Below, one piece after another: positions 41,810 through 54,083 of a DNA stretch of 54,083 nucleotides (positions within the stretch are counted from its first letter, which is position 1; the number at the start of each line of letters is the position of its first letter). Both the position numbers and the translations under genes were made by a program. The notes under the pieces are model-generated. The model worked only from the letters and a program-made list of their open reading frames with translations. It did no database searches and was not told where the DNA came from. This stretch comes from a virus. Lineage: Duplodnaviria > Heunggongvirae > Uroviricota > Caudoviricetes. The stretch is from the IMG/VR virus record IMGVR_UViG_2534682338_000012, positions 1 through 54,083 of that record. One strand, 5' to 3'.

Positions 41810-41855
41810 ATTCGTAATGCGAAGGTCGTAGGTTCGACTCCTATTATCGGCACCA
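41810..41855. repeat. attR of prophage / attL of P4-like element (partial tRNA-Thr 3' end)
   Basis: 46-bp copy of tRNA 3' end lacking the 5' half. Confidence 0.7.
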
Positions 41856-42019
41856 TCACCTAGTTTTCCCAAGTCAACCCACATCAACAAAATCATTTAA
41901 AAACATATATATTACGTTATTTTCATACGTTTGAGGTCAACCCTTGTCTCTTGAAATCAACACGCGGTTGGGGGCACAATCAGGGGCATGTTCTGTTCGG
42001 TCTAGGAAATGTGCCCCCA

Positions 42020-43210
42020 ATGATGCTGAATGCCCGCAAGGTTGAAGCTGCGAAAGGAAAAGAGAAGAGCTACAAGCTGTTTGATGGAGGTGGCCTATAC
42101 CTTCAGGTCGAACCTAATGGCTCGCGTTACTGGCGTATGAAATACCGTTTTGCTGGTAAAGAGAAACGATTGTCCTTTGGTGTTTATCCAACAGTCACAC
42201 TTGCTGATGCCAGACAAAAACGAGAAGACGCGAAGAAACTACTCGCAGCAGGTGAAGATCCCGGCGAAGTCAAAAAAGCCAAAAAGCAGGCTTTAAATGC
42301 AGCGATTGAGACACTTAACCCATTCAGAGAAGTGGCGTTAGAGTGGCACAAAATGAAATCACCCAAATGGTCTGAGGGCTATGCTTCCGACATCATTGAG
42401 GCATTCGAGAAAGACATTTTCCCGCATATTGGGCACAGACCTATAGCTGATATTCAGCCCCTTGAACTGCTTGAAGTTCTGAGGTTGATAGAAGCTCGAG
42501 GCGCTATGGAGAAAGCGAAGAAAGTCCGTCAGCGATGCGGTGAAGTTTTTCGCTATGCCATCGTAACGGGTAGGGCAATCTACAATCCGGCACCGGATCT
42601 TGCCAGTGCGATGCAAGGACATGAAGCAGTCCACTATCCATTCCTCAAAGCCAACGAACTACCGGAGTTCTTTAATGCCCTTAATTCTTATTCAGGAAGT
42701 CCAATTGTATTGTTGGGGGCGCATTTACTTATCCTGACAGGTCTACGAACTGGAGAACTACGAGCAGGTGAGTGGCGAGAGGTGGATTTTGATAATGCGG
42801 TGTGGGAGATCCCAAAAGAACGTATGAAAATGCGTAGGAGCCATATTGTCCCGTTGTCAAAACAAGCATTATCCCATCTCAAAAGTTTGAAAGAACTAAC
42901 TGGGAACTACCCGCTGATGTTCCCTGGACGCAACGATCCTAGCAAATTTATGAGTGAAGCAAGCATTAATCAGGTGTTTAAACGTATTGGATATGCAGGG
43001 CGTGTTACGGGGCATGGTTTCAGGCATACGATGAGTACAATCCTACATGAGAAAGGATTTAACAGCGCTTGGATTGAAACCCAGCTTGCTCATTCGGACA
43101 AAAACTCTATTCGTGGAATTTATAACCATGCCCAATATCTCGAAGGGAGAAGAGAAATGATGCAATGGTATGCTAATTATTTATCTGAGCTAATTGGTAC
43201 TCATAAATGA
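42020..43210 (+). CDS. P4-type tyrosine integrase
   Basis: N-terminal LNARKVEAAKGKEKSYKLFDGGGLYLQV (DUF4102-like arm-binding domain), C-terminal HGFRHT...Y catalytic region; track start is TTG, ATG chosen. Confidence 0.85.
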   Translation: MMLNARKVEAAKGKEKSYKLFDGGGLYLQVEPNGSRYWRMKYRFAGKEKRLSFGVYPTVTLADARQKREDAKKLLAAGEDPGEVKKAKKQALNAAIETLNPFREVALEWHKMKSPKWSEGYASDIIEAFEKDIFPHIGHRPIADIQPLELLEVLRLIEARGAMEKAKKVRQRCGEVFRYAIVTGRAIYNPAPDLASAMQGHEAVHYPFLKANELPEFFNALNSYSGSPIVLLGAHLLILTGLRTGELRAGEWREVDFDNAVWEIPKERMKMRRSHIVPLSKQALSHLKSLKELTGNYPLMFPGRNDPSKFMSEASINQVFKRIGYAGRVTGHGFRHTMSTILHEKGFNSAWIETQLAHSDKNSIRGIYNHAQYLEGRREMMQWYANYLSELIGTHK

Positions 43211-44031
43211 ATATTTTAAAAATTAATAATACTGATTCTCTGCTCAGAGATTACTACCAGTTGGATGAAGCTTCAGAAAAAATTGGTTGTAGTGAAAAGG
43301 ATATACTCTGGTTTGCCAGAGAACGAGATGTAGAGCTATGCATGGAATTCCATGATGATGAGTATGATGTTTCATGTGGTTTGAAGATTGATGGTCAAAT
43401 GGATGAGTTCTTATCTAATCTGAAATATTTACCACGAGATAGAAATGGCAATATTATGTTGTCAGACTTAAGTTCTATAAGAATCCCTGATGAAGATAAT
43501 TTAATTGATAAAAATGGTTTTATTCGATGTTTCATATCCGGTTTATGGGCTGTTGATTATGAATATAAAGATCTGTTAGTTAAGCATGAGGGGCAACCGG
43601 ATTCTTGGCCTATTCATTTTCTACTGGCGGGTACGCCTAATATAAATTGTAAGGTAATTCTTTATGTAAATTATGATGAAAAAGAAAATTATTATCTTTT
43701 TGAGGTTTTGTGGATTACAAAGGTACAGATTCAAAAATTCATTGATATAGTCTTATGCGAACAAAAGCGGATAAAAAACGCCAATAAATATAAATCACAA
43801 TCTGAGGCGCAAAAACAAAAACATGCTGTTCCTCGAGCTGAAATACTCATGGCTATTATTTCGCTCTATCATCGTGATATGAGGCTAAGAAGAGAGAGTC
43901 CAGCAGCGATAGCTGATTATCTTTTTCAACATGCCAGTGAGTTCTGGCCTAAGACCGGAGAACCGCCTTTGAGCTATGATACTGTTGTTAGTTTGCTACG
44001 TAGTTGCATGAAAAACATTAAGTTTAACTAA
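43207..44031 (+). CDS. hypothetical protein (274 aa), AT-rich
   Basis: Start overlaps integrase stop (ATGA), no recognisable domain. Confidence 0.5.
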   Translation: MNILKINNTDSLLRDYYQLDEASEKIGCSEKDILWFARERDVELCMEFHDDEYDVSCGLKIDGQMDEFLSNLKYLPRDRNGNIMLSDLSSIRIPDEDNLIDKNGFIRCFISGLWAVDYEYKDLLVKHEGQPDSWPIHFLLAGTPNINCKVILYVNYDEKENYYLFEVLWITKVQIQKFIDIVLCEQKRIKNANKYKSQSEAQKQKHAVPRAEILMAIISLYHRDMRLRRESPAAIADYLFQHASEFWPKTGEPPLSYDTVVSLLRSCMKNIKFN

Positions 44032-44156
44032 ATATTAACAATTATTGTGGCTAATGATTTTGGATTTTTTTCATTAGTCACATTTTTCTCATTTATAACC
44101 TATGTTTTAATTTTCCGTGTTGAAGCCAATAGACTTAGATAAACGGAGAATGATGA

Positions 44157-44447
44157 ATGTTATCTAAACATGATAATACTACTTTGCAACGACCTTCAAT
44201 GGATTCTCTGATCGATATGAAGTTTATTACTTCCGATTGTTTATTAAGTGATAAATGGATTTATCGATTGATTTCTCTGAATCGCTTTCCAAAACCTATA
44301 AAAATAGGTCGGATGTCACGATGGCGCGCTGCTGATTATTATAAGTGGCGAGATGGGTTTGAAGAAAACTCAGGTCAACATTTTGAGGGAATGAGAAATA
44401 AGGCAAGAGCAATTAATAAAGGGAATAGATTATCACCTACTCCCTAA
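44157..44447 (+). CDS. AlpA-family phage regulatory protein
   Basis: C-terminal region resembles AlpA HTH (RLISLNRFPKPIKIGRMSRWRAADYYKW); true start may be internal (~44217). Confidence 0.55.
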   Translation: MLSKHDNTTLQRPSMDSLIDMKFITSDCLLSDKWIYRLISLNRFPKPIKIGRMSRWRAADYYKWRDGFEENSGQHFEGMRNKARAINKGNRLSPTP

Positions 44448-44479
44448 GCCTTAATTGATAGTTAGTAATATTTAACTGA

Positions 44480-44653
44480 TTAGCCTTTAGGGTCAATCCC
44501 GCGTGATTGGAGTTCTTTGCGTAAAATTCTTTTAATCCAAGTTGCCAACGCGCTATCTCCATCTTTGCGCATTTCGTTTTCGAGTTGCAACCTAAAATCG
44601 TCGGTAAGACGCATTTGGAATGGTGGAGAACGTTTCTCTTGTGGTGTTGACAT
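44480..44653 (-). CDS. small ribbon-helix-helix-like protein (57 aa), not in ORF track
   Basis: Minus-strand ORF MSTPQEKRSPPFQMRLTDDFRLQLENEMRKDGDSALATWIKRILRKELQ...; beta-strand/helix/helix pattern; two copies of CATGGTAATTACC palindrome at and upstream of start. Confidence 0.4.
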   Translation of the reverse strand: MSTPQEKRSPPFQMRLTDDFRLQLENEMRKDGDSALATWIKRILRKELQSRGIDPKG

Positions 44654-44784
44654 GGTAATTACCCTAGAATATGATGACTACATGGTAATTACCATTGTAA
44701 GTATAGTTCGCTTGTAAAAGCAATGCCCGATTGTGCGGGAACACAAATCGGGCATTTAACCAACCGTTATAAGAGGTAACGAAG

Positions 44785-44961
44785 ATGGCTAAACAGAAGT
44801 GTACCTGGTTATTTGCGGCGATCAACCGCAGTCAACGCAATGCCCGTCCTGTGATGTTAAGGATCACCGCAGATAACGAGCGGTCAGCGCGGCGCAGACT
44901 TGCCCCGGACTATGTACTGAGCTTTGCCGGGCGCATTCCCTGCGGAGGTGAACATGCGTAA
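44785..44961 (+). CDS. small protein (58 aa), possibly Icd-like
   Basis: AAGAGG RBS; MAKQKCTWLFAAINRSQRNARPVMLRITADNERSARRRL...; translationally coupled to next gene; family assignment from memory, low certainty. Confidence 0.35.
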   Translation: MAKQKCTWLFAAINRSQRNARPVMLRITADNERSARRRLAPDYVLSFAGRIPCGGEHA

Positions 44962-45313
44962 TTATCCGCACCCCGGCGAACGCTGGCAGCATGAACGTGG
45001 CTGGACGGTCACGATTATCCGATTAATAGAAGCCTCGCCCTCTGTGGCGCTGGTTAATCCTGAATTCAGCTGTGAAGTGCTGATACGTCATGACAGCGAC
45101 AACCAGCTTTCTTCCTGCCCTCTGGCATGGTTTGAACAGCGGTATACGCGCCTGTTTGATGTACCGCTCTTTAAGCCTGCACCAGCTCCTGCAGGCGGTA
45201 GTGGTTCCGGCCCGCTGACACTGCATCCGTCTGTGCTATTTATCCGCTGGCGGGAGCGTAGCATATGGCGTTCTGCTGAGCCTGACGACGGTCACTATTC
45301 AAAGTTTCTCTGA
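44954..45313 (+). CDS. hypothetical protein
   Basis: Start MRNYPHPGERW after GGAGGTG, overlapping upstream stop. Confidence 0.5.
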   Translation: MRNYPHPGERWQHERGWTVTIIRLIEASPSVALVNPEFSCEVLIRHDSDNQLSSCPLAWFEQRYTRLFDVPLFKPAPAPAGGSGSGPLTLHPSVLFIRWRERSIWRSAEPDDGHYSKFL

Positions 45314-45344
45314 CAAAATACCGCTGAAAACGGAGTAATCCACG

Positions 45345-45629
45345 ATGAATATTTCAAACGGGCACAACGGTGCTCAGGGCCACACTTTGCCTGAAAAACA
45401 CAATACCGGTGCTTTTGCCTATGGGTTGTCAGAGGACAGTTTCGGAAAGCTGACCCGCGCAAGAAATGCCTGCGACATGCTCCAGCTTCTCTTTTCTGAA
45501 TACCCGTCTCAGGCCGGAGCACTGGACGCTGGCTGTGCGCATGGTGTCGCCGCGCTGATGGAGTACCTGCTGGCAGATTTGACGGATATTGCACACAGTT
45601 GCGCACTGATTGAAGGAGGTGCCAGATGA
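45345..45629 (+). CDS. hypothetical protein
   Basis: 94-aa ORF in operon upstream of primase. Confidence 0.45.
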   Translation: MNISNGHNGAQGHTLPEKHNTGAFAYGLSEDSFGKLTRARNACDMLQLLFSEYPSQAGALDAGCAHGVAALMEYLLADLTDIAHSCALIEGGAR

Positions 45630-46009
45630 ACCAGCCGCAGGTTTCCATTTTCCCGGCAGAAATGACCACCGCGCTTTACCGGCGGGCTATTGCTTCAGCA
45701 TGGCGGCAGAAAATGCTGAACGAAACTGGCAGTGATCAGTATGGTCCGCACAGCCTGACGGTGGAGCGTATTGAAATGGCCATTGCGCTGCATATCGAGT
45801 GCGTACTGATTAACGAGTACGGCGAAGTGCAGGGCGCCGCTACCGCGCTGGCACTGCTGACTGACATGCTGGAGCCGTCACTGCTGACCGCGCCGCCGGT
45901 ACTGACCGCGCGCGGCTGTGAAGTGATGGCGGAGATGTACCGCACGCTTCCGGCGGCCTTTGATGACTTCTGCAGTACCGGTGTGACGTTGTATGAGGGG
46001 GAAGTATGA
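45626..46009 (+). CDS. hypothetical protein
   Basis: 127-aa ORF, stop-start overlap with neighbours. Confidence 0.45.
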   Translation: MNQPQVSIFPAEMTTALYRRAIASAWRQKMLNETGSDQYGPHSLTVERIEMAIALHIECVLINEYGEVQGAATALALLTDMLEPSLLTAPPVLTARGCEVMAEMYRTLPAAFDDFCSTGVTLYEGEV

Positions 46010-48678
46010 CAATACGGACGGTTACGCAGATTTCAGCCGCCGCACGGGGGAAATGGCCCGTTATTCTGCAGATGCTGCGTATTGATGTACCTGAAAACGG
46101 CAGGCACGGTCCCTGCCCGAAATGTGGGGGCAAGGATCGTTTTCGCCTTGATGACCTTGACGGGCGCGGGACGTGGATCTGCAGCCAGTGTGGCAATGGT
46201 GACGGTCTGGATCTGGTTAAGCTCGTAACCGGTTACAGCGTCAGAAAGGCTGCGCAGGAGGTGGCGCAGGTGCTTAATGTGCCGGATGTGCAGGAACTGC
46301 CTGTTAAGCCTGCCAGACAAAAAGCCCCTAAACGAGACATGGGTCTTACCGTGGCGGCGCTGATGAAAGAGAGCCACACGGGAGAAAGCGCCTATCTGAC
46401 AGGAAAAGGGTTCGCCGGATACCCGGCCTCTCTGACCGGAAGCGTGCAGCATATCAGCGGTAAGGATTTTCCTGCCGGTTCCCTGCTGTTACCACTCACG
46501 ACCAACACCGGAGCCGTGACCGGTGCACAGCTTATCGCCCCGACGGGTGAAAAAAGCATACTGCCCGGCAGCACGATGAAAGGCGCGTTTGTGTCGCTCA
46601 GCCCGTTACCGTCTGAACCACCGGTACAGGTGGTGATTACCGAAGGTTACGCTACGGCGCTGACGGTAAGCCAGCTCACTGCCGGATGCGTAGTGGCTGC
46701 CATATCTGCGGGCAACCTGCCCAATGTGGCGCAGTCGCTGCGGGCACGCTGGCCTGAGGTAAAAATTATCATCGCCGGTGATAACGATTTTCAGGACGGG
46801 GGTGAGAATCCCGGCAGAGCCTTTGCTGAACGGGCGGCAAAAGCTGTTGGCGGCTGGATGACGCTGCCACCAGGAGAGATTAAGGCTGACTGGAATGACT
46901 TTCATCGGGAGCACGGTATTACCCGTGCCCGTGAAGCCTTTCGCAACGGTCTGGTACTGTGCGGGGAAGGCCGCACGCAACTGCCGCACGGGTTCCGTCT
47001 TACCCAGGAATATCTCTGGTATGAAAAGCAGGTACAGCGCAACGGTGAGACGGAGATCCAGAACGTCAAAATATGCAGCCCGCTGCGCGTGACGGCAATT
47101 ACCTGCGATGCCGATGGCGGTAACTTCGGACGACTGCTGGAATGGGAAGATACGTGGGGTGAGTGTCGCCGCTGGGCGATGCCAATGGAAATGCTGAGCG
47201 GCAGTGGTGAGGAACTGCGCCGGGTTCTGCTGGTTAACGGGCTGTCTTATATCAGCACCACCGGTGAGGCACGCGCACGCCTGATGGAATATATCTCACT
47301 GTGTAAACCGGAACGCCGCGTGACCTGCGTCAGTCGTACTGGCTGGCATGGTCAGGTTTACGTCCTGCAGGATGAGGTCAGCGGTGAAGGTGCAGAGGGT
47401 GTCATTCTCCAGACCACTTCCGTGCAGGGGCGTGATTTCCGCGTGTCGGGCACAACAGAGGAATGGCGGGAGCATGTATCCCGCTACTGTACCGGCAACT
47501 CCCGCGTGGCATTTGCTGTCAGCCTGGCCTTTGCTGCACCACTGTTACGGCTGGTTGGTATGGACGGCGGCGGCTACCACCTCAAAGGGGAATCGACAGA
47601 CGGTAAGACCACCACCATGAAAGCGGCAACCTCCGTCTGCGGCGGGCCTGACTACTGGCAGACATGGCGGGCCACCGGCAACGCGCTGGAGGGATGCGCC
47701 AGCCGCCGTAACGATGCCGCCATGATGCTTGATGAGATCCGGGAAGTTGACGGACGCGAGGCAGGCAATATCGCCTACATGCTGGCAAACGGTCAGGGCA
47801 AGGGCCGTGCCGGTACGGACGGTGAGCTGCGTACCCGTAAGCAGTGGCGCCTGTTGTTCTTTTCAACTGGCGAGTTGTCTCTGACCGAACATGCGGCAAA
47901 GGCCGGTGAGCGTACTTTTGCCGGGATGGAAGTCAGGATGATCCAGATCCCCAGCGATTCCGGGAAGTTTGGCGTTTTTGAGGAGCTGCACGGCTTCGAC
48001 AGCGGCAAGGCTCTGGCAGAGCATCTTGAATGGGCCACGTCCTGCTACTACGGTTCGCCGTTCCGGGAGTGGCTGAAAGCACTGACCGCTGATCTTAACG
48101 GACTAACGGCACAGGCAAAATCGCTGATGAAGGAATATGCTGCCGCCCTGACTCCGAAAGATGCAGGCAATCAGGTGGGCCGGGCTGTGAACCGCTTTGC
48201 ACTGGTGGCGATGGCAGGTGAACTGGCAACCCGTCTGGGTATCACCGGCTGGCCTGAGGGTGAAGCACTGCGGGCAACCCGCGTCTGCCTGAACGCATGG
48301 CTGAAAGATCGCGGGCACACCGCCAATCAGGAAGATATCGCCGCACTGGAGCAGGTTCGCAGTTTCTTTACCGCGAATCAGTACAGCCGCTTTGCAGACT
48401 GGTATGACGAGCGCAACCGCCCCGGCAATATGGTGGGCTGGCGCAGGGTGGAGAAAGGCAGTACCGCGCAGGGCACGGAAGCTGTCACTACGTTCTATGT
48501 CATGCCGTCCGGCTGGAAAGAAATCTGCAGGGGATTTGACCCGCGCAAGGTGGCGCGTCTGTGCGCAGATCGTGGATACCTGCTGCCCTCCACTGATGGC
48601 AAACTCCAGACAACCATTCGCCCGCCAGAGATGAATCCCCGCAGGCTCTATGTCTTCAACAGCGAGGTGCCGGGTTAA
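46006..48678 (+). CDS. P4 alpha-like primase-helicase
   Basis: 890 aa; N-terminal zinc-binding CPKCGG...CSQCGNGDG, TOPRIM-like acidic region, central P-loop (GESTDGKT) helicase region. Confidence 0.85.
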   Translation: MTIRTVTQISAAARGKWPVILQMLRIDVPENGRHGPCPKCGGKDRFRLDDLDGRGTWICSQCGNGDGLDLVKLVTGYSVRKAAQEVAQVLNVPDVQELPVKPARQKAPKRDMGLTVAALMKESHTGESAYLTGKGFAGYPASLTGSVQHISGKDFPAGSLLLPLTTNTGAVTGAQLIAPTGEKSILPGSTMKGAFVSLSPLPSEPPVQVVITEGYATALTVSQLTAGCVVAAISAGNLPNVAQSLRARWPEVKIIIAGDNDFQDGGENPGRAFAERAAKAVGGWMTLPPGEIKADWNDFHREHGITRAREAFRNGLVLCGEGRTQLPHGFRLTQEYLWYEKQVQRNGETEIQNVKICSPLRVTAITCDADGGNFGRLLEWEDTWGECRRWAMPMEMLSGSGEELRRVLLVNGLSYISTTGEARARLMEYISLCKPERRVTCVSRTGWHGQVYVLQDEVSGEGAEGVILQTTSVQGRDFRVSGTTEEWREHVSRYCTGNSRVAFAVSLAFAAPLLRLVGMDGGGYHLKGESTDGKTTTMKAATSVCGGPDYWQTWRATGNALEGCASRRNDAAMMLDEIREVDGREAGNIAYMLANGQGKGRAGTDGELRTRKQWRLLFFSTGELSLTEHAAKAGERTFAGMEVRMIQIPSDSGKFGVFEELHGFDSGKALAEHLEWATSCYYGSPFREWLKALTADLNGLTAQAKSLMKEYAAALTPKDAGNQVGRAVNRFALVAMAGELATRLGITGWPEGEALRATRVCLNAWLKDRGHTANQEDIAALEQVRSFFTANQYSRFADWYDERNRPGNMVGWRRVEKGSTAQGTEAVTTFYVMPSGWKEICRGFDPRKVARLCADRGYLLPSTDGKLQTTIRPPEMNPRRLYVFNSEVPG

Positions 48679-48699
48679 GGCTTTGCGTGAGTCTTATTT

Positions 48700-48900
48700 A
48701 TTAAGGGTAACAGGTGAAACAGGTGGAACAACCGTATTTTACAGGGCTGAATCTGTTCCACCTTCTGAAATAGTGAGGTGGAACAGATGTAACGCCAGCC
48801 AATCCGCTGTTCCACCTTGTTACCCGCGATGTTCCACCGGTGCAGTGTATATAAATGCTTTATAAAACAAATGGGTAACACATGTTTCACCTGTTACACC
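48700..48900. repeat. ori/crr-like iteron cluster
   Basis: At least five copies of GGTGGAACA/TGTTCCACC in both orientations plus inverted GTAACAGGTGAAAC...GTTTCACCTGTTAC. Confidence 0.5.
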
Positions 48901-49078
48901 GCATCAGGGACATAAAGCAGACTGAAACAGAGGGCATTTTTATCTGGCTGGCTTTCATAGCCACGTCTGAATAACCGCAAGCGCCCGTTGTACCAGCCAC
49001 CACACACTGAGCACCGATAGTGTGCTTGTGTCAGCCACGACACAATTGACGTAACGAACCAACCCGACAGGAGAAGTC

Positions 49079-49822
49079 ATGAACAACACCGCAGTGAATA
49101 ACAACCTTTCCACTTTTCCGGCTGTAACGCAGCGGGCACTGGAAACCATGAACACAGCCAGAAACGCATGGCTTGAAGCACGTCGTCAGCAGAAAGCGGC
49201 AGCGGATAATATTGCGACAATCCGCCAGCGTCGCGCTGAAATGGAAGCCACGACGAACACACTGAATGAGGAGTGGCGCACGCTGTTTCGTGAAAGTCAG
49301 GGCGTGGTCTCAAAGGAAATGAAAAAACTGCGCACGGAAATTGCGCTGGGACGAGAAACTCTTGAGGATTTTGATGAGCTGCTGGAGGCTCAGGAAAGCG
49401 AAAATGCACTTTTGCCGCAGAAAGCTGCGGAATTAGCCGGAAAGTATATCCACGCGCATAACATCCTTGTGGATATTCGCGCAAAACAAATCTGGGAAGA
49501 TTTTATGCAGTCGCATGGAAAAGCGCTTATTCAGACGCTGAGCCTGCTTAAATCCACAATGGGCCGGGAAGCCAGTGCCGTTGTGGGTGTGGTGAATTCA
49601 GTTAATGACCCGGACACAGTGCTGAAAGACTTTATTCATAAACATATCACCAGACCGGCTCTGGCTAACGATGCGATGCCTGAGCAGGACCCGGTGTTTA
49701 AACTGGCGGGAGTTGCCCCGGATTATGCGGCGCGTCTGGATTTCAGTAATCAACTCTCTCCGGCAGCTATGCATAAAATTAAGGTTCGTCAGGAACTTGC
49801 TGAGAAGGAGAAAGCAGTATGA
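49079..49822 (+). CDS. possible Sid-like capsid size determination protein
   Basis: 247 aa, alpha-helical/coiled-coil character, immediately upstream of Psu; size close to P4 Sid. Confidence 0.35.
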   Translation: MNNTAVNNNLSTFPAVTQRALETMNTARNAWLEARRQQKAAADNIATIRQRRAEMEATTNTLNEEWRTLFRESQGVVSKEMKKLRTEIALGRETLEDFDELLEAQESENALLPQKAAELAGKYIHAHNILVDIRAKQIWEDFMQSHGKALIQTLSLLKSTMGREASAVVGVVNSVNDPDTVLKDFIHKHITRPALANDAMPEQDPVFKLAGVAPDYAARLDFSNQLSPAAMHKIKVRQELAEKEKAV

Positions 49823-50370
49823 CGGCCCGAGGCACGCCTGACCAGGCACTTACCAGTTTTCGGAATGCCCGTATTCTGTGGGCCGGACATAATGAGAGCC
49901 GAAAAGCCGTTGAACAACAGATAACATCTCTCCTCGCTGCCACAGAAAAACCAGCAGATTATGCCCGACAGCTCGAATTACTGCGGGAACGTCTGGATGT
50001 GCTGAAATGGCAAATTAACTGTGCTGCGCGCGAATGCATTTACTCGCAGCATTTACTGATGGAGGCCTGCACAGAAGCCGCTCTCAGCAATTTTATGCAG
50101 GCGAATGGGGCAGCCCTGACATCTGCACTGGCTCCGTTCCTGAAGGGGCGCGGAGGGGTTGACGTTGCGTCCCGTATATTACGCAGTGCTCTGGTTCGCC
50201 AGCTGGCAATAACACCGCCTGAAATTGCCGGGGATTATCGTGAGATCCTGGATGAATCCGGTTTGATGCCTGACCCCGGGATGATTCGTGATTGCCAGGG
50301 GTCTTACACCCCGGCACAACATCTGCGTTTTCAGCAACGCCTGAATGACATTAACGATATACAGGAGTGA
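49819..50370 (+). CDS. psu: polarity suppression protein Psu
   Basis: 183 aa; blocks recalled from P4 Psu (LKWQINCAAR, FMQANGAALTSALAPFL, YTPAQHLRF). Confidence 0.65.
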   Translation: MTARGTPDQALTSFRNARILWAGHNESRKAVEQQITSLLAATEKPADYARQLELLRERLDVLKWQINCAARECIYSQHLLMEACTEAALSNFMQANGAALTSALAPFLKGRGGVDVASRILRSALVRQLAITPPEIAGDYREILDESGLMPDPGMIRDCQGSYTPAQHLRFQQRLNDINDIQE

Positions 50371-50375
50371 TATTA

Positions 50376-50648
50376 ATGGCACTTAAATGTCCGGAATGCG
50401 GTACAGTTGCACACGCCAGAACAGCAGCCTATGAAGCTCCGTCAGTTAAACGCTCGTGGTATCAGTGCCAGAATCTGGAATGTTCCTGCACATTTACGGC
50501 ACTGGAGAGTGTGGATAAGATAATCATGAAACCCCGGCGCAATGAACAGCTATCAGACAAAGCACAATCCCCGGAAAAACAACAGCAAACGCTCAATCGC
50601 TATGGCTCCGCGTCAAAACTGTCAAGCCGTCAGCAGATTCCTGTCTGA
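50376..50648 (+). CDS. Ogr/Delta-family zinc-finger late activator
   Basis: CPECG...AHARTAAYEAPSVKRSWYQCQNLECSCTF matches Ogr C2C2 motif. Confidence 0.8.
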   Translation: MALKCPECGTVAHARTAAYEAPSVKRSWYQCQNLECSCTFTALESVDKIIMKPRRNEQLSDKAQSPEKQQQTLNRYGSASKLSSRQQIPV

Positions 50649-51177
50649 TTAGAAAAAAACGCCCACGTAATCCTGGTCGAGTACCGGGATTTTTAACACC
50701 TTTTCCCTGGCTGGCCTGAGAGCGCATGAGTGCATGTCTATGGCGCATGAAAATGCATGAGCCTTATGCACCTTTTTTGAGGCGAAAACCTTTGTGTGGT
50801 GGTATCTGAGACGATTTATGGCATGCATGAAAACCAGTCTGTTAAGCGAAGCGGGCAGGCGTGCGGGGCTGCCCGCGATAGCACTGAAATCAACAGGTAA
50901 AACTATTTTTTATTAGTAGTGTAAACTGGGAGCGAACGGACTCTGTCATGCTGTATCATCCTGTAATGATCAATCTCACTGGTGTCTGTATAGATGTCAA
51001 CCAGTTTCGACGGCTGTGTCTAACTTAAAATTAGAGCTTAATCAAGTTTTTCCTCGAGAATACTTTTAAAAGACAATGAGTTATGAGAAAGTGGAGGCTG
51101 TCACGTTGGTCATATGTAACACTCCACGTAATCTTAATCGCTTTGTAAATGTTGAAGTTAATTAATAGGGAAAACTG

Positions 51178-52137
51178 ATGCTAACCAGGGCTGAAAATAT
51201 AAGAAAAATCACAAGCTATTTAGCTATTCTCTCAAGAGAGGTTGAGATTAGTGCCTCCCTCAATCTTTTGGATATCAACGTTCAAGCGGAATCTTTTTAT
51301 AGAGATTTCTTAAACTTATGTTATGGATATAATTTAAGAAATACCAATAGTGAAGAGCAAAACTACCAAGCAATAGATCTTGCTGATGAAGATCGGAAGA
51401 TTGCTATACAAGTAACTTCAACTTCTGACTTGGGAAAAATTAAGAATACAGTTGATGGATTTATAAAAAGTAAGCAATATGAAAAATATGATAGACTAAT
51501 TGTACTGAATATAACTGAAAAGAAAAAGCACAGATTGAAAGAGTATGGAATAGCCGGGTGCTATGTAATTAATATCAAAGATGATGTATGGGATTATAAG
51601 GATATAATTAGAAAGATAAACGATTTGAATGATTGTGATATATCAACAATATGCTCATTTTTGGAACGTAATATTAATACTAAAGCTGCTGATAAACCGC
51701 CGAAAGAAGTCACAACTATGTTTGCGATGATTGAATTATTGAGTGATGATGCTCACCCATTGGCAGGAAATGGATTTATTGAAGAGCCTAATCCTGAAAA
51801 TAAAATATATAAAAGATTTTCAGATTATTCAGAGCGGTTGATTGGCTTATATACTGGGTTAGCTCCATTATATAGTGGGATATTTAAGTCAATAAAAGAA
51901 CAGAGCGATATTGGTATCGTAAGGTACCAAAAGATGAGTTTGTATTTAGAGTCATTTAGTGATAAGGTCTTAAGAAGCCATGGTGGAGATCCTATCTTGG
52001 CGCTTAATTATTTAAAAGAATATTTTTCTAAACAACTGAGCCAGAGAAATGTAGATTACGATGAAACAGCTATCAAATTTTTCTTAATTGAGAATTTAAT
52101 TGCATGTAACGTCTTTCCTAATTCGGAGATTCTTTGA
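51178..52137 (+). CDS. hypothetical cargo protein (319 aa), candidate effector/specificity component
   Basis: AT-rich ORF, first gene of tightly coupled three-ORF cassette after P4-like late genes. Confidence 0.55.
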   Translation: MLTRAENIRKITSYLAILSREVEISASLNLLDINVQAESFYRDFLNLCYGYNLRNTNSEEQNYQAIDLADEDRKIAIQVTSTSDLGKIKNTVDGFIKSKQYEKYDRLIVLNITEKKKHRLKEYGIAGCYVINIKDDVWDYKDIIRKINDLNDCDISTICSFLERNINTKAADKPPKEVTTMFAMIELLSDDAHPLAGNGFIEEPNPENKIYKRFSDYSERLIGLYTGLAPLYSGIFKSIKEQSDIGIVRYQKMSLYLESFSDKVLRSHGGDPILALNYLKEYFSKQLSQRNVDYDETAIKFFLIENLIACNVFPNSEIL

Positions 52138-52384
52138 TGTTAAGTTTTTTTTCGAAAGATGAGGATTTGACAAAATCCCCTCCTGTTGTAGGGGCTAAAA
52201 TTCTTAATTTATTTGACGAAACAAAAAAGAAAAAATTAGTATTTTCGATTTAGCAAAAGAATTAAAGAAAAACAACTCTCTAGGAGTGCGTGCAATTTAT
52301 TTTGGAATGGTCTTTCTTTATACTCTTGATCTTATCGATTTCGATGAGCCATATGTGATAAATAAAAATGTTAAGAATAAATAA
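52137..52384 (+). pseudogene. small middle ORF (~80 aa if contiguous) interrupted by frameshift in A-rich tract
   Basis: ATG overlaps upstream stop (TGATG); frame 0 gives 38 aa then stop; adjacent frame continues ...ISIFDLAKELKKNNSLGVRAIYFGMVFLYTLDLIDFDEPYVINKNVKNK to overlap the next gene. Confidence 0.35.
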
Positions 52385-54083
52385 ACTATATAGCATACCA
52401 GAATCTTTTGAGCCAGTAAGCTTTGATAGTGGCATCAATATCATCTTAGGTGAAAAAGATGTTTCATCTAACAAAACTAATGGAGTGGGTAAAACTCTTT
52501 TAATAGAGTTTATTAATTTTTGTTTATTAAAAGAATTTAAGTCGAGTAGAGTTTCTAAAATTCCTCATTCTGATTTTTCGAAAGACATTTTGATATGCCT
52601 TGATTTTAATATTGATAATATTAACATTATATCCCAGCGTTCTATTGGGAAACATAATGAGCCAACACTTGTAATAAATGGAAAAACAATAGAGTTTAGT
52701 GGATTAGATGATGCGTTATCTCATTTAAGCAATCTTATCTTTAAGAATAGTAAGGGTATACTTCATCCATCATTTAGAGCGATGCTGGGGCCTCTGATAC
52801 GCGATGAACGATCTGAATTTAAATCTATTGTTGAGTGCTTCGACACAAAATTACATATACCTGCTGACTATACTCCTCATCTTTATTTGTTAGGTATTGA
52901 TATTGCTCCCTATAAAGAGGCAAAGATTTTACAACGAGAAATAGATGATTTATCAACTACAAAAAATAAAATAAAGAGAGATATTGAATTTCTGACGGGA
53001 AAAAAAATTAGTTCTGCAAAGGCAGAGGTTAATGATCTTAAATCAAAAGTTGAACATATCAGAAACGCTATGGATGCATTTGATAGCGATAGCAGTTATG
53101 AACTTATCAAAGATGAAGTAGAAGAATTAGAAAGTTCTTTAGAAGAGTTGCGGAATAAAAGAACAATACTTAAGTTAGAGCTTTCAAGAATAAATGCTCT
53201 CGTTGGTGAAGTATACATAAATGATGATGAAGTAGTTGAAATTTATAATAAATTTAAAGTTGGATTAGGTGATGCTATCAAAAAAGAACTTAATGATGTT
53301 ATTTCATTTAAGAAAAAAATAGATCACTTCCAAAACACTTTGTTAAATACGCGAAAAGAAACATTACTTTCTGAATTGCGTAAGATATCAGATAAGCTAT
53401 ATACAGTAAATAGACTTTATAAAGAAAAAGCTAGTGTTTTTGAGCAGGCGGGGGGGTTTAAAAGCCTGAAAATTTTAATAATGACTTATCAGAAAAAGTT
53501 AGAGGAGTATTCACAGTTATCTTCATTGCTTAAAAAATTTGAAGATTTCGATTCTAAATGGAAAGTTAAGAAGTCAGAACGCTCTTCTATGATAATTTCG
53601 TTAGATCTTTCTATTATGGATAACGAAAAAACGATTGAATCTTTTGAGGAAACCATTTTATCAATCCATGAATATGTTTTTGGAAATAGAAAGTGTTCTT
53701 TCGAAATTAAGGCGACAGAGAAGAAAGAAACTATCTCAATGGATTTAAGAATTGATGATGACGGTAGTCATAGTAATGAGCGAGAAAAGGTTTTCTTTTA
53801 TGATTTGGCTCTTTTACTTACAGAAGAAACGTTTCGACGTCACCCTGGATTATTAATTCATGATAATATTTTTGATGTGGATCAAGATACATTAATTAAA
53901 AGCTTGAATTATTTGGCAGAGAAATCCAGTTGCTTAAATGATGCACAATATATTTTGACGTTAAATAGCGACAAAATTAGTGAAATTGATAAAAGAGATT
54001 TGAAACTAGATATTAACTTCTATAAGCGAGCTTCGTTAACTAAAATAAATAGATTCCTGGGAAGGCATTATCAAGAAATATAA
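52368..54083 (+). CDS. SMC/ABC-like P-loop ATPase with long coiled coil (571 aa)
   Basis: N-terminal Walker A-like NGVGKT, ~200-aa K/E/L-rich heptad region, C-terminal hydrophobic-D stretch (GLLIHDN) resembling Walker B. Confidence 0.6.
   Translation: MLRINKLYSIPESFEPVSFDSGINIILGEKDVSSNKTNGVGKTLLIEFINFCLLKEFKSSRVSKIPHSDFSKDILICLDFNIDNINIISQRSIGKHNEPTLVINGKTIEFSGLDDALSHLSNLIFKNSKGILHPSFRAMLGPLIRDERSEFKSIVECFDTKLHIPADYTPHLYLLGIDIAPYKEAKILQREIDDLSTTKNKIKRDIEFLTGKKISSAKAEVNDLKSKVEHIRNAMDAFDSDSSYELIKDEVEELESSLEELRNKRTILKLELSRINALVGEVYINDDEVVEIYNKFKVGLGDAIKKELNDVISFKKKIDHFQNTLLNTRKETLLSELRKISDKLYTVNRLYKEKASVFEQAGGFKSLKILIMTYQKKLEEYSQLSSLLKKFEDFDSKWKVKKSERSSMIISLDLSIMDNEKTIESFEETILSIHEYVFGNRKCSFEIKATEKKETISMDLRIDDDGSHSNEREKVFFYDLALLLTEETFRRHPGLLIHDNIFDVDQDTLIKSLNYLAEKSSCLNDAQYILTLNSDKISEIDKRDLKLDINFYKRASLTKINRFLGRHYQEI

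Follow-up and report, generated by a model that had tools for sequence, protein, structure and literature searches.

The three-gene cassette at positions 51178 to 54083 of IMG/VR virus record IMGVR_UViG_2534682338_000012 (Caudoviricetes) lies at the end of a 54,083-nucleotide (nt) stretch of DNA that was analysed at its full length and is referred to here as the window. The cassette encodes a 319-amino acid (aa) effector with a SMEK domain, a small middle protein and a 571-aa ATPase. With a probability of about 0.85, it is assigned to the type II 'short' Lamassu systems as a member of the SMEK-effector subtype, forming the exchangeable terminal cargo of a divergent P4-like satellite integrated at tRNA-Thr; its membership in the wider Lamassu/ABC-three-component (ABC-3C) family is considered just as probable. 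The domain identities, the Rad50/LmuB-like fold of the ATPase, the nuclease fold of the effector, the chassis with swappable effectors, the A-C-B gene order and the hotspot location are all direct observations. The initial annotation of this DNA had proposed an ABC-three-component or Lamassu-like cassette, and this was borne out by domain searches, structure comparison, conserved synteny and the replacement of the cargo next to a shared late operon; its further suggestion of a possible new variant was not, because SMEK is already listed as an effector type of short Lamassu in the published census (PMC12663957; Haudiquet et al., PNAS 2025). The cassette is thus a further member of a catalogued subtype, and neither a new variant nor a new kind of system. 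It should be noted that the assignment to the SMEK-type short Lamassu was made from architecture, fold and the text of PMC12663957. Type II Lamassu is equated with ABC-3C in a published abstract.

The features of the cassette are as follows.

51178..52137, + strand: SMEK effector gene (lmuA-like, 319 aa), from the list of open reading frames (ORFs) and domain matches
51205-51621, + strand: SMEK domain of the effector (aa 10-148; Mrr-like PD-(D/E)xK fold), from Pfam, NCBIfam and PADLOC matches
51691-52134, + strand: helical C-terminal docking domain of the effector (aa about 172-319), from a profile search
52137..52384, + strand: middle gene (lmuC, the ABC-3C middle component, similar to Middle Component 6, MC6), encoding 82 aa when intact and frameshifted in the window
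52368..54083, + strand: ATPase gene (lmuB-like, 571 aa), with its stop codon at the last base of the window

The three genes overlap and are all encoded on the + strand: the ATG of the middle gene (52137) shares one base with the TGA of the effector gene, and the TAA of the middle gene (52382-52384) overlaps the ATG of the ATPase gene (52368) by 17 nt. A 230-nt gap between the two long ORFs holds the small ORF, which is broken in the window. The G+C fraction of the cassette is 0.28-0.33 (~0.30), compared to about 0.50-0.60 in the satellite core, and the tightly coupled, AT-rich layout described earlier was therefore confirmed in its ORFs, its overlaps and its drop in G+C. The cassette is not a product of chance, because long ORFs in DNA of 30% G+C are combined with strong hidden Markov model (HMM) matches and conserved synteny. 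A scan for promoters and terminators performed no better than on shuffled sequence. The initial annotation had also held that the middle ORF was in need of repair, which agrees with the intact 82-aa protein encoded by three Escherichia coli relatives, and that further components might follow the ATPase, which they do not. In the near-identical island of E. coli VG12A2, the att core (the 3' end of tRNA-Thr) is repeated ~180 nt past the ATPase stop as attR, with chromosomal genes beyond; therefore, the system is complete with three genes.

Components of the cassette and their conservation

The C-terminal half of the 571-aa ATPase was matched by Pfam DUF2326 (E 4e-19) and its N-terminal half by AAA_23/SMC_N, and the protein was also matched by the PADLOC candidate model PDC-M68B (E 1.4e-48); its homologues are named 'YydD (DUF2326 family)' in their source annotation, and NCBIfam held no model for the ATPase or for the middle protein. 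Walker A (KTNGVGKT, aa 36-43, in the form KTNGVGK[ST]) and Walker B (LLIHD, aa 495-499) are invariant across 25 homologues. An AlphaFold model built on 25 homologues (predicted local distance difference test, pLDDT, 83) places the helices of a coiled coil at aa 180-438, and the protein carries a signature-like motif, DGSHS, and no CxxC zinc hook. In a Foldseek comparison of this model with the PDB, the best match was Bacillus subtilis YydD (9a6c_A, E 1.8e-23, template modelling score, TM, 0.59), followed by LmuB chains from four independent structures (9hqu_A, 9hqx_B, 9ux7_A and 9nyg_B, E 3e-12 to 4e-9), with Rad50 and SMC heads ranking below the LmuB chains. The ATPase has the organisation that characterises LmuB, namely an N-terminal Walker A, a coiled-coil insert and a C-terminal half with Walker B and signature motif, at a length close to the roughly 600 aa of the short type. 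The P-loop, long coiled coil and C-terminal Walker B from which an SMC/ABC architecture had been recognised initially are thus all present in a protein whose model matches YydD, LmuB and Rad50/SMC, and the Foldseek comparison that had been proposed at the same time placed LmuB ahead of Rad50/SMC; the link between the ATPase and LmuB is visible at the level of the fold only, and not by sequence or profile. In its sequence motifs, the ATPase resembles the hydrolysis-impaired 'short' LmuB of the literature, because it lacks a CxxC zinc hook, carries the DGSHS motif and has Asn after the Walker B Asp.

The 319-aa effector had initially been described as having no recognisable domain; however, its N-terminal part was matched by Pfam SMEK_N (E 5e-46), NCBIfam SMEK_N (E 8e-35) and PADLOC Aga_REase (E 3e-41). 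Structure comparison of this domain returned NucC, Mrr-like and restriction-enzyme folds, and the core fold of restriction endonucleases is present. The SMEK domain furthermore shares homology with the Mrr nuclease domain found in the short-Argonaute system of Kordia jejudonensis (PDB 26bh_D, E 7.5e-15), and its conserved residues are E38, D67/D70, Q78-V-T80, K87 and T91. These matches point to a putative nuclease activity of the SMEK domain. For the model of the whole effector, the top PDB match in Foldseek was weak (E 0.66) and fell on YydB, the cross-link-verified partner of YydD.

A profile of the effector C-terminal domain (CTD) matched only 213 representatives among 1.84 billion representative proteins, and these fall into three size classes of about 320 aa (SMEK + CTD), about 280 aa and about 177 aa. 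Two of the three proteins scanned from the ~280-aa class carry an N-terminal HNH nuclease domain and the third gave no Pfam match, while the ~177-aa class is without an effector domain and consists of the CTD only. At the locus examined, the gene for HNH + CTD is followed by an MC6 gene, and the CTD-only gene is followed by MC6 and then by a 583-aa DUF2326 ATPase. Since SMEK + CTD, HNH + CTD and CTD-only proteins are found with shared partners, one sensor chassis (CTD, MC6 and DUF2326) is combined with interchangeable effectors. LmuA in Lamassu/ABC-3C is defined by this principle: a variable N-terminal effector joined to a shared, chassis-specific C-terminal domain, as was found here. According to PMC12663957, the effectors found specifically in short Lamassu include HNH, SMEK and lipase, and one clade has lost its effector domain; the SMEK, HNH and effector-less forms were recovered here independently and agree with that published census. 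One chassis with SMEK, HNH or no effector illustrates the modular exchange of immune cargo. At two effector-less loci (L087, 2753-6514, and L088, 809-4570), which encode a 178-aa CTD-only protein, a 78-aa MC6 protein and a 583-aa DUF2326 protein, a 62-aa ORF and a 295-aa protein are encoded upstream on the same strand. The 295-aa protein gave faint nucleotidyltransferase matches (NTP_transf_2/Polbeta) and a HEPN match, and may be an effector acting in trans or part of a neighbouring toxin-antitoxin pair.

The intact middle protein was matched by Pfam ABC-3C Middle Component 6 at E 3.4e-4 and 21 bits, below the gathering cut-off of 27.2 bits; the same model matched 20 of the 22 aligned members of the middle-protein family, with a best E of 5.7e-7. 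The cassette thus has a small middle component, with its gene placed between those for the effector and the ATPase. When a middle-protein profile was searched against the PDB, only spurious KaiC matches were returned.

The linkage of the three genes, the loss of which would have spoken against the initial proposal, is conserved. The same arrangement was found with three phylogenetically distant homologues, in Sphingobacterium, Paraburkholderia and Sphingorhabdus, and a synteny scan with one genome per species returned 79 loci, 44 of them with a full-length effector homologue. A small ORF of 68-95 codons overlaps or abuts the effector stop in all 44, and the ATPase gene lies 180-250 nt downstream on the same strand in 43; the exception is a contig that ends 365 nt past the effector. 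Loci from Firmicutes and Bacteroidales (L055-L082, among them Paenibacillus and Sharpea) encode a SMEK + CTD protein of about 320 aa (E 1e-30 to 1e-37), followed at exactly +205 nt by an ORF of ~573 aa that the proteobacterial ATPase profile missed at E 1e-3. The middle ORF was often not found at these loci at a length of at least 55 codons, and the group has the look of a branch that shares this layout but has diverged further.

Among 5426 complete E. coli genomes, the cassette is present in three, at 99.7-100% identity to the window; near-identical intact alleles are carried by strains VG12A2 and CD09. Salmonella carries the same cassette on a satellite of this kind, and so, judged by protein names, does Raoultella. 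No DNA copy was found in a phage collection, in which the one distant protein match was to the ATPase only. In other phyla, further genes for defence or from mobile elements adjoin the cassette. At the Sphingorhabdus locus (L005, 1-6000), a type III-like restriction-modification pair (ResIII/N6_N4 methyltransferase) lies beside the cassette and a UvrD-family helicase gene abuts the effector start, and at the Sphingobacterium locus (L003, 8985-11403) the neighbours are SRAP, ArdA and PRTRC genes.

The host satellite and its cargo hotspot

The late operon in the window (49166-50877) is 92% identical to that of a satellite in E. coli O55:H7, whose cargo is the experimentally active 'Lamassu-var' (PMC11754643). 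The similarity stops at 50877, right behind a GC-rich inverted repeat, and the cargo differs beyond this point, which is direct evidence that the sequence from 50878 onwards is a cargo hotspot. These sister satellites, which carry different Lamassu variants at the same junction, show the same modular exchange as the effectors on the shared chassis. The satellite is delimited by the features below.

41838..41855, + strand: att core repeat at the left end of the satellite, a copy of the tRNA-Thr 3' end at 1427-1444
41951..50648, + strand: core of the divergent P4-like satellite, from Pfam and PHROG matches, in agreement with the RefSeq annotation of near-identical islands
50851-50858 and 50869-50876, no strand assigned: GC-rich inverted repeat (GCGGGCAG, 10-nt spacer, CTGCCCGC) with 8-bp arms and no T-tract

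The 18-nt att core is present in two exact copies in the window, against 0 expected. The core genes encode an integrase, an AlpA-like protein, DUF5375 and a Zn-ribbon/Toprim/DUF927 primase, and the late genes encode a 247-aa Sid/Psu-like protein, a 183-aa Psu and a 93-aa Ogr/Delta protein, so that the integrase, alpha-type primase, Sid/Psu/Delta set and tRNA integration typical of P4-like satellites are all found. The Psu protein is 29.5% identical to that of P4. The satellite thus belongs to a divergent group, with a Psu about 31% identical to that of P4, that was noted in the Domainator paper, the authors of which suggest that satellites with divergent Psu exploit other Caudoviricetes (PMC11754643). 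The P4-like satellite hotspot of the initial annotation therefore stands as regards the exchange of cargo next to a conserved late operon, but the satellite itself is only distantly P4-like. The cos-like GC-rich site that had been placed before the cassette was not upheld: the sequence found there is the 8-bp GC inverted repeat, and the canonical 19-nt cohesive-end (cos) sequence of P2/P4 was absent at up to three mismatches. The repeat at 50851-50876 has no T-tract and lies exactly at the end of the similarity to the O55:H7 satellite. Instead of a terminator, it may be a boundary element tied to recombination or packaging.

The satellite is part of a tandem array at tRNA-Thr(CGU) (1369-1444), in which a ~40-kb prophage (1445-41837) is followed by the satellite (41856-54083), with the exact 18-nt att repeat (41838-41855) at their junction. 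By their RefSeq names, the prophage genes include terminase, portal and capsid genes, a Mu-like tail/baseplate and a protein-kinase-domain gene. The order is reversed in E. coli VE-T9 (tRNA, satellite, prophage), and VG12A2 carries the satellite alone. Within the satellite, a 274-aa ORF (43207-44031, + strand) with a G+C fraction of 0.32-0.36 and no Pfam or PHROG match overlaps the integrase stop and is interrupted by IS1 in VG12A2; this ORF may mark a second small site for cargo, located between the integrase gene and that of the AlpA-like regulator.

Proposed mechanism, frameshifts and alternative explanations

According to published abstracts, Lamassu responds to DNA ends or structures and not to phage proteins, and its effector is held sequestered. 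In a mechanism drawn by analogy from the solved Vibrio, Salmonella and Bacillus Lamassu complexes, a dimer of the 571-aa LmuB together with the 82-aa LmuC would hold one copy of the 319-aa LmuA inactive through its C-terminal domain. An encounter of the ATPase heads with DNA ends or replication intermediates from a phage or plasmid that invades the cell would release LmuA, which would then oligomerise, and its SMEK nuclease would degrade DNA indiscriminately, such that the infected cell dies by abortive infection. We lean towards this mechanism of sequestration and DNA-end-triggered release applying unchanged to the cassette, with clearly less assurance than for the family assignment.

The satellite in the window is 99.97% identical to that of VG12A2 over 12.3 kb, and a 1-nt deletion in lmuC is the sole indel. 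The run at 52223-52228 is A6, compared to A7 in three E. coli relatives; the middle ORF of the window is cut short by a premature TAG at 52251-52253, beyond which the last two thirds are read in the -1 frame up to the TAA at 52382-52384. This deletion may have arisen very recently by mutation, or it may be an assembly error in a homopolymer. If the frameshift is real, it would remove LmuC and probably also lower LmuB, because the ATPase start, as read from the sequence, lacks an evident Shine-Dalgarno sequence or other ribosome-binding site and overlaps lmuC, and the copy in the window, if its sequence is correct, is probably inactive or only weakly expressed. The deletion leaves ACA AAA AAG in frame (52220-52229), which is an A_AAA_AAG heptamer, and a -1 ribosomal slip on it would regenerate wild-type LmuC (...ETKKEKISIF...); heptamers of this type are slippery in E. 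coli, as at dnaX. E. coli VE-T9 (L002) has independently lost 1 nt from an A8 run in the gene for the ATPase, equivalent to 53000-53007 of the window, and the ATPase is thereby split into ORFs of 250 aa and 337 aa. Of the four copies of the cassette in E. coli, two (the window copy and VE-T9) therefore have homopolymer frameshifts, in different genes. A 329-aa 'partial ATPase' from Salmonella (P0159) was considered as a third disrupted allele and was rejected, as it is merely cut by a contig end. It is conceivable, but most improbable, that a costly suicide system is switched on and off, or dimmed, through the A7 tract of lmuC and the A8 tract of lmuB; were this so, the 'broken' alleles would give low, leaky expression, and a phage satellite would carry phase-variable or frameshift-tuned immunity.

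Several results weigh against the assignment to a functional SMEK-type short Lamassu, the frameshift in the middle gene of the window among them. An experimental test of any SMEK-type Lamassu was not found in the searchable literature. The SMEK motif reads D67...Q78-V-T80, with Thr in place of the canonical lysine of (D/E)xK; the role of that lysine might be taken by K87, which is invariant and located on the next helix. Pfam scans of the C-terminal domain, alone and with 25 homologues, returned no match to an ABC-3C CTD family. The residue after the Walker B Asp of the ATPase is Asn, in a motif, (L/F)L(I/V)HDN, that is invariant in 25 homologues; Walker B of short Lamassu is likewise non-canonical, yet Asn falls outside the consensus hhhhD[Q/S/T/E] given in PMC12663957. 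Searches of the PDB with the ATPase by phmmer and with an hmmsearch profile never reached LmuB and returned coiled-coil noise only. A PADLOC search of the locus, which had been proposed as a check on the initial annotation, gave it no support, since the Lamassu models of PADLOC-DB 2.0.0 recognised no component: the LmuB model matched the ATPase only at E 0.014, through the coiled coil, there was no LmuA or LmuC match, and neither the middle protein nor the effector C-terminal domain was matched in that database. The lack of a sequence-level link to LmuB or to models of the LmuA CTD or LmuC, together with the unusual signature (DGSHS), Walker B (HDN) and H-loop positions of the ATPase, would fit a reading in which DUF2326/YydD proteins form a separate three-component family with the same chassis logic, a trigger other than DNA ends and another stoichiometry. 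This reading is improbable, as the LmuB chains are the best structural matches after YydD and lie above Rad50/SMC, Pfam files the middle protein under ABC-3C, and the short-Lamassu forms of the 2025 census include SMEK, HNH and an effector-less clade, the same three that were found on this chassis. Even less can be said for a housekeeping SMC/RecN fragment, a satellite core gene or a simple toxin-antitoxin addiction module, to which we attach almost no probability. The SMC-like fold of the ATPase is consistent with such an origin; however, the cassette is confined to 3 genomes among the 5426 complete ones of E. coli, on a mobile island and with foreign G+C, it is a full-length three-gene unit conserved across phyla, and a sister satellite with a shared late operon has other cargo in its place. 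The SMC/RecN fragment and the satellite core gene were ruled out on the grounds of this rarity in E. coli, the conserved three-gene unit and the cargo replacement.

Two further alternatives accept the assignment to Lamassu and concern what the cassette does. In one of these, the copy in the window is a dead remnant: the frameshift is real, LmuC is lost and LmuB is lowered through lost translational coupling, and the cassette does nothing in its strain or was inactivated because it was toxic. The 1-nt deletion relative to three relatives, the independent frameshift in the A8 run of VE-T9 and the toxicity of published Lamassu systems when over-expressed all speak for inactivation. A homopolymer sequencing error is equally likely, however, because the satellite is 99.97% identical to that of VG12A2, in which the gene is intact, and this indel is the only one; moreover, pseudogenes of defence systems are reportedly uncommon in P4 hotspots, and a -1 slip on the in-frame A_AAA_AAG heptamer would restore wild-type LmuC. 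On balance, we put inactivation of this copy at somewhat below even odds. The other alternative, which we regard as rather unlikely, is that the main target is not lytic phages but plasmids and other extrachromosomal DNA, or the helper and competitors of the satellite, as for Vibrio cholerae DdmABC. DdmABC, a type II Lamassu, acts against plasmids, and the sensing of DNA ends or structures rather than phage proteins, as stated in published abstracts, would suit such a target; however, the locus offers nothing by which plasmid and phage targets could be told apart, and the related satellite-borne Lamassu-var acted on T-even phages (PMC11754643). Read as a SMEK-type short Lamassu, the cassette provides a concrete E. 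coli example of this subtype at an easily cloned locus, with near-identical intact alleles in VG12A2 and CD09; the finding reveals no new kind of system and bears on no open question.

Comparison with known systems

The cassette corresponds most closely to the short type II Lamassu, as described in PMC12663957. Shared features are the A-C-B gene order, an SMC/Rad50-like LmuB of about 570-600 aa with an intact Walker A and a residue other than Glu after the Walker B Asp, a small middle protein, an effector with an enzymatic N-terminus and a docking C-terminus, and the occurrence of SMEK, HNH and effector-less forms on the same chassis. The cassette differs in the Asn that follows its Walker B (outside [Q/S/T/E]), in the absence of a zinc hook and in the frameshifted lmuC of the window. 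Compared to B. subtilis YydB-(YydC)-YydD (integrative model, PDB 9a6c), both ATPases belong to DUF2326, YydD is the closest structural match of the cassette ATPase, and YydB is the weak top match of the effector, through its C-terminal part; however, YydB is a protein of 481 aa with another N-terminal domain, and sequence identity is about 18%.

The LmuB fold, the operon logic and the use of a nuclease effector are also shared with V. cholerae DdmABC and Salmonella LmuACB (9hqu, 9hqx and 9nyg). These systems have Cap4/DUF4297 effectors, the middle component MC3 and the C-terminal domain CTD7, whereas the cassette has a SMEK effector, MC6 and an unclassified C-terminal domain, and identity between them is 11-15%. 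The 'Lamassu-var' of O55:H7 (PMC11754643) is ABC-3C-related cargo of a satellite from the same subfamily and sits in the same hotspot immediately behind ogr/delta; the late operon there is 92% identical, and the Psu is about 30% identical to P4 Psu. It has cargo genes of its own, however, with an MC2-type middle component and five coding sequences on the opposite strand, and it is abundant (259 hotspots), in contrast to the SMEK cassette. In the Mrr-APAZ/short Argonaute (pAgo) system of K. jejudonensis (SPARMA; PDB 26bh), the Mrr domain is described as the nuclease effector of a defence system, and it is homologous to the SMEK domain of the cassette, with the motifs AIDLAD...QxTST...K in common; the sensor of SPARMA, however, is a guide-loaded Argonaute, and that of the cassette is an ABC ATPase.

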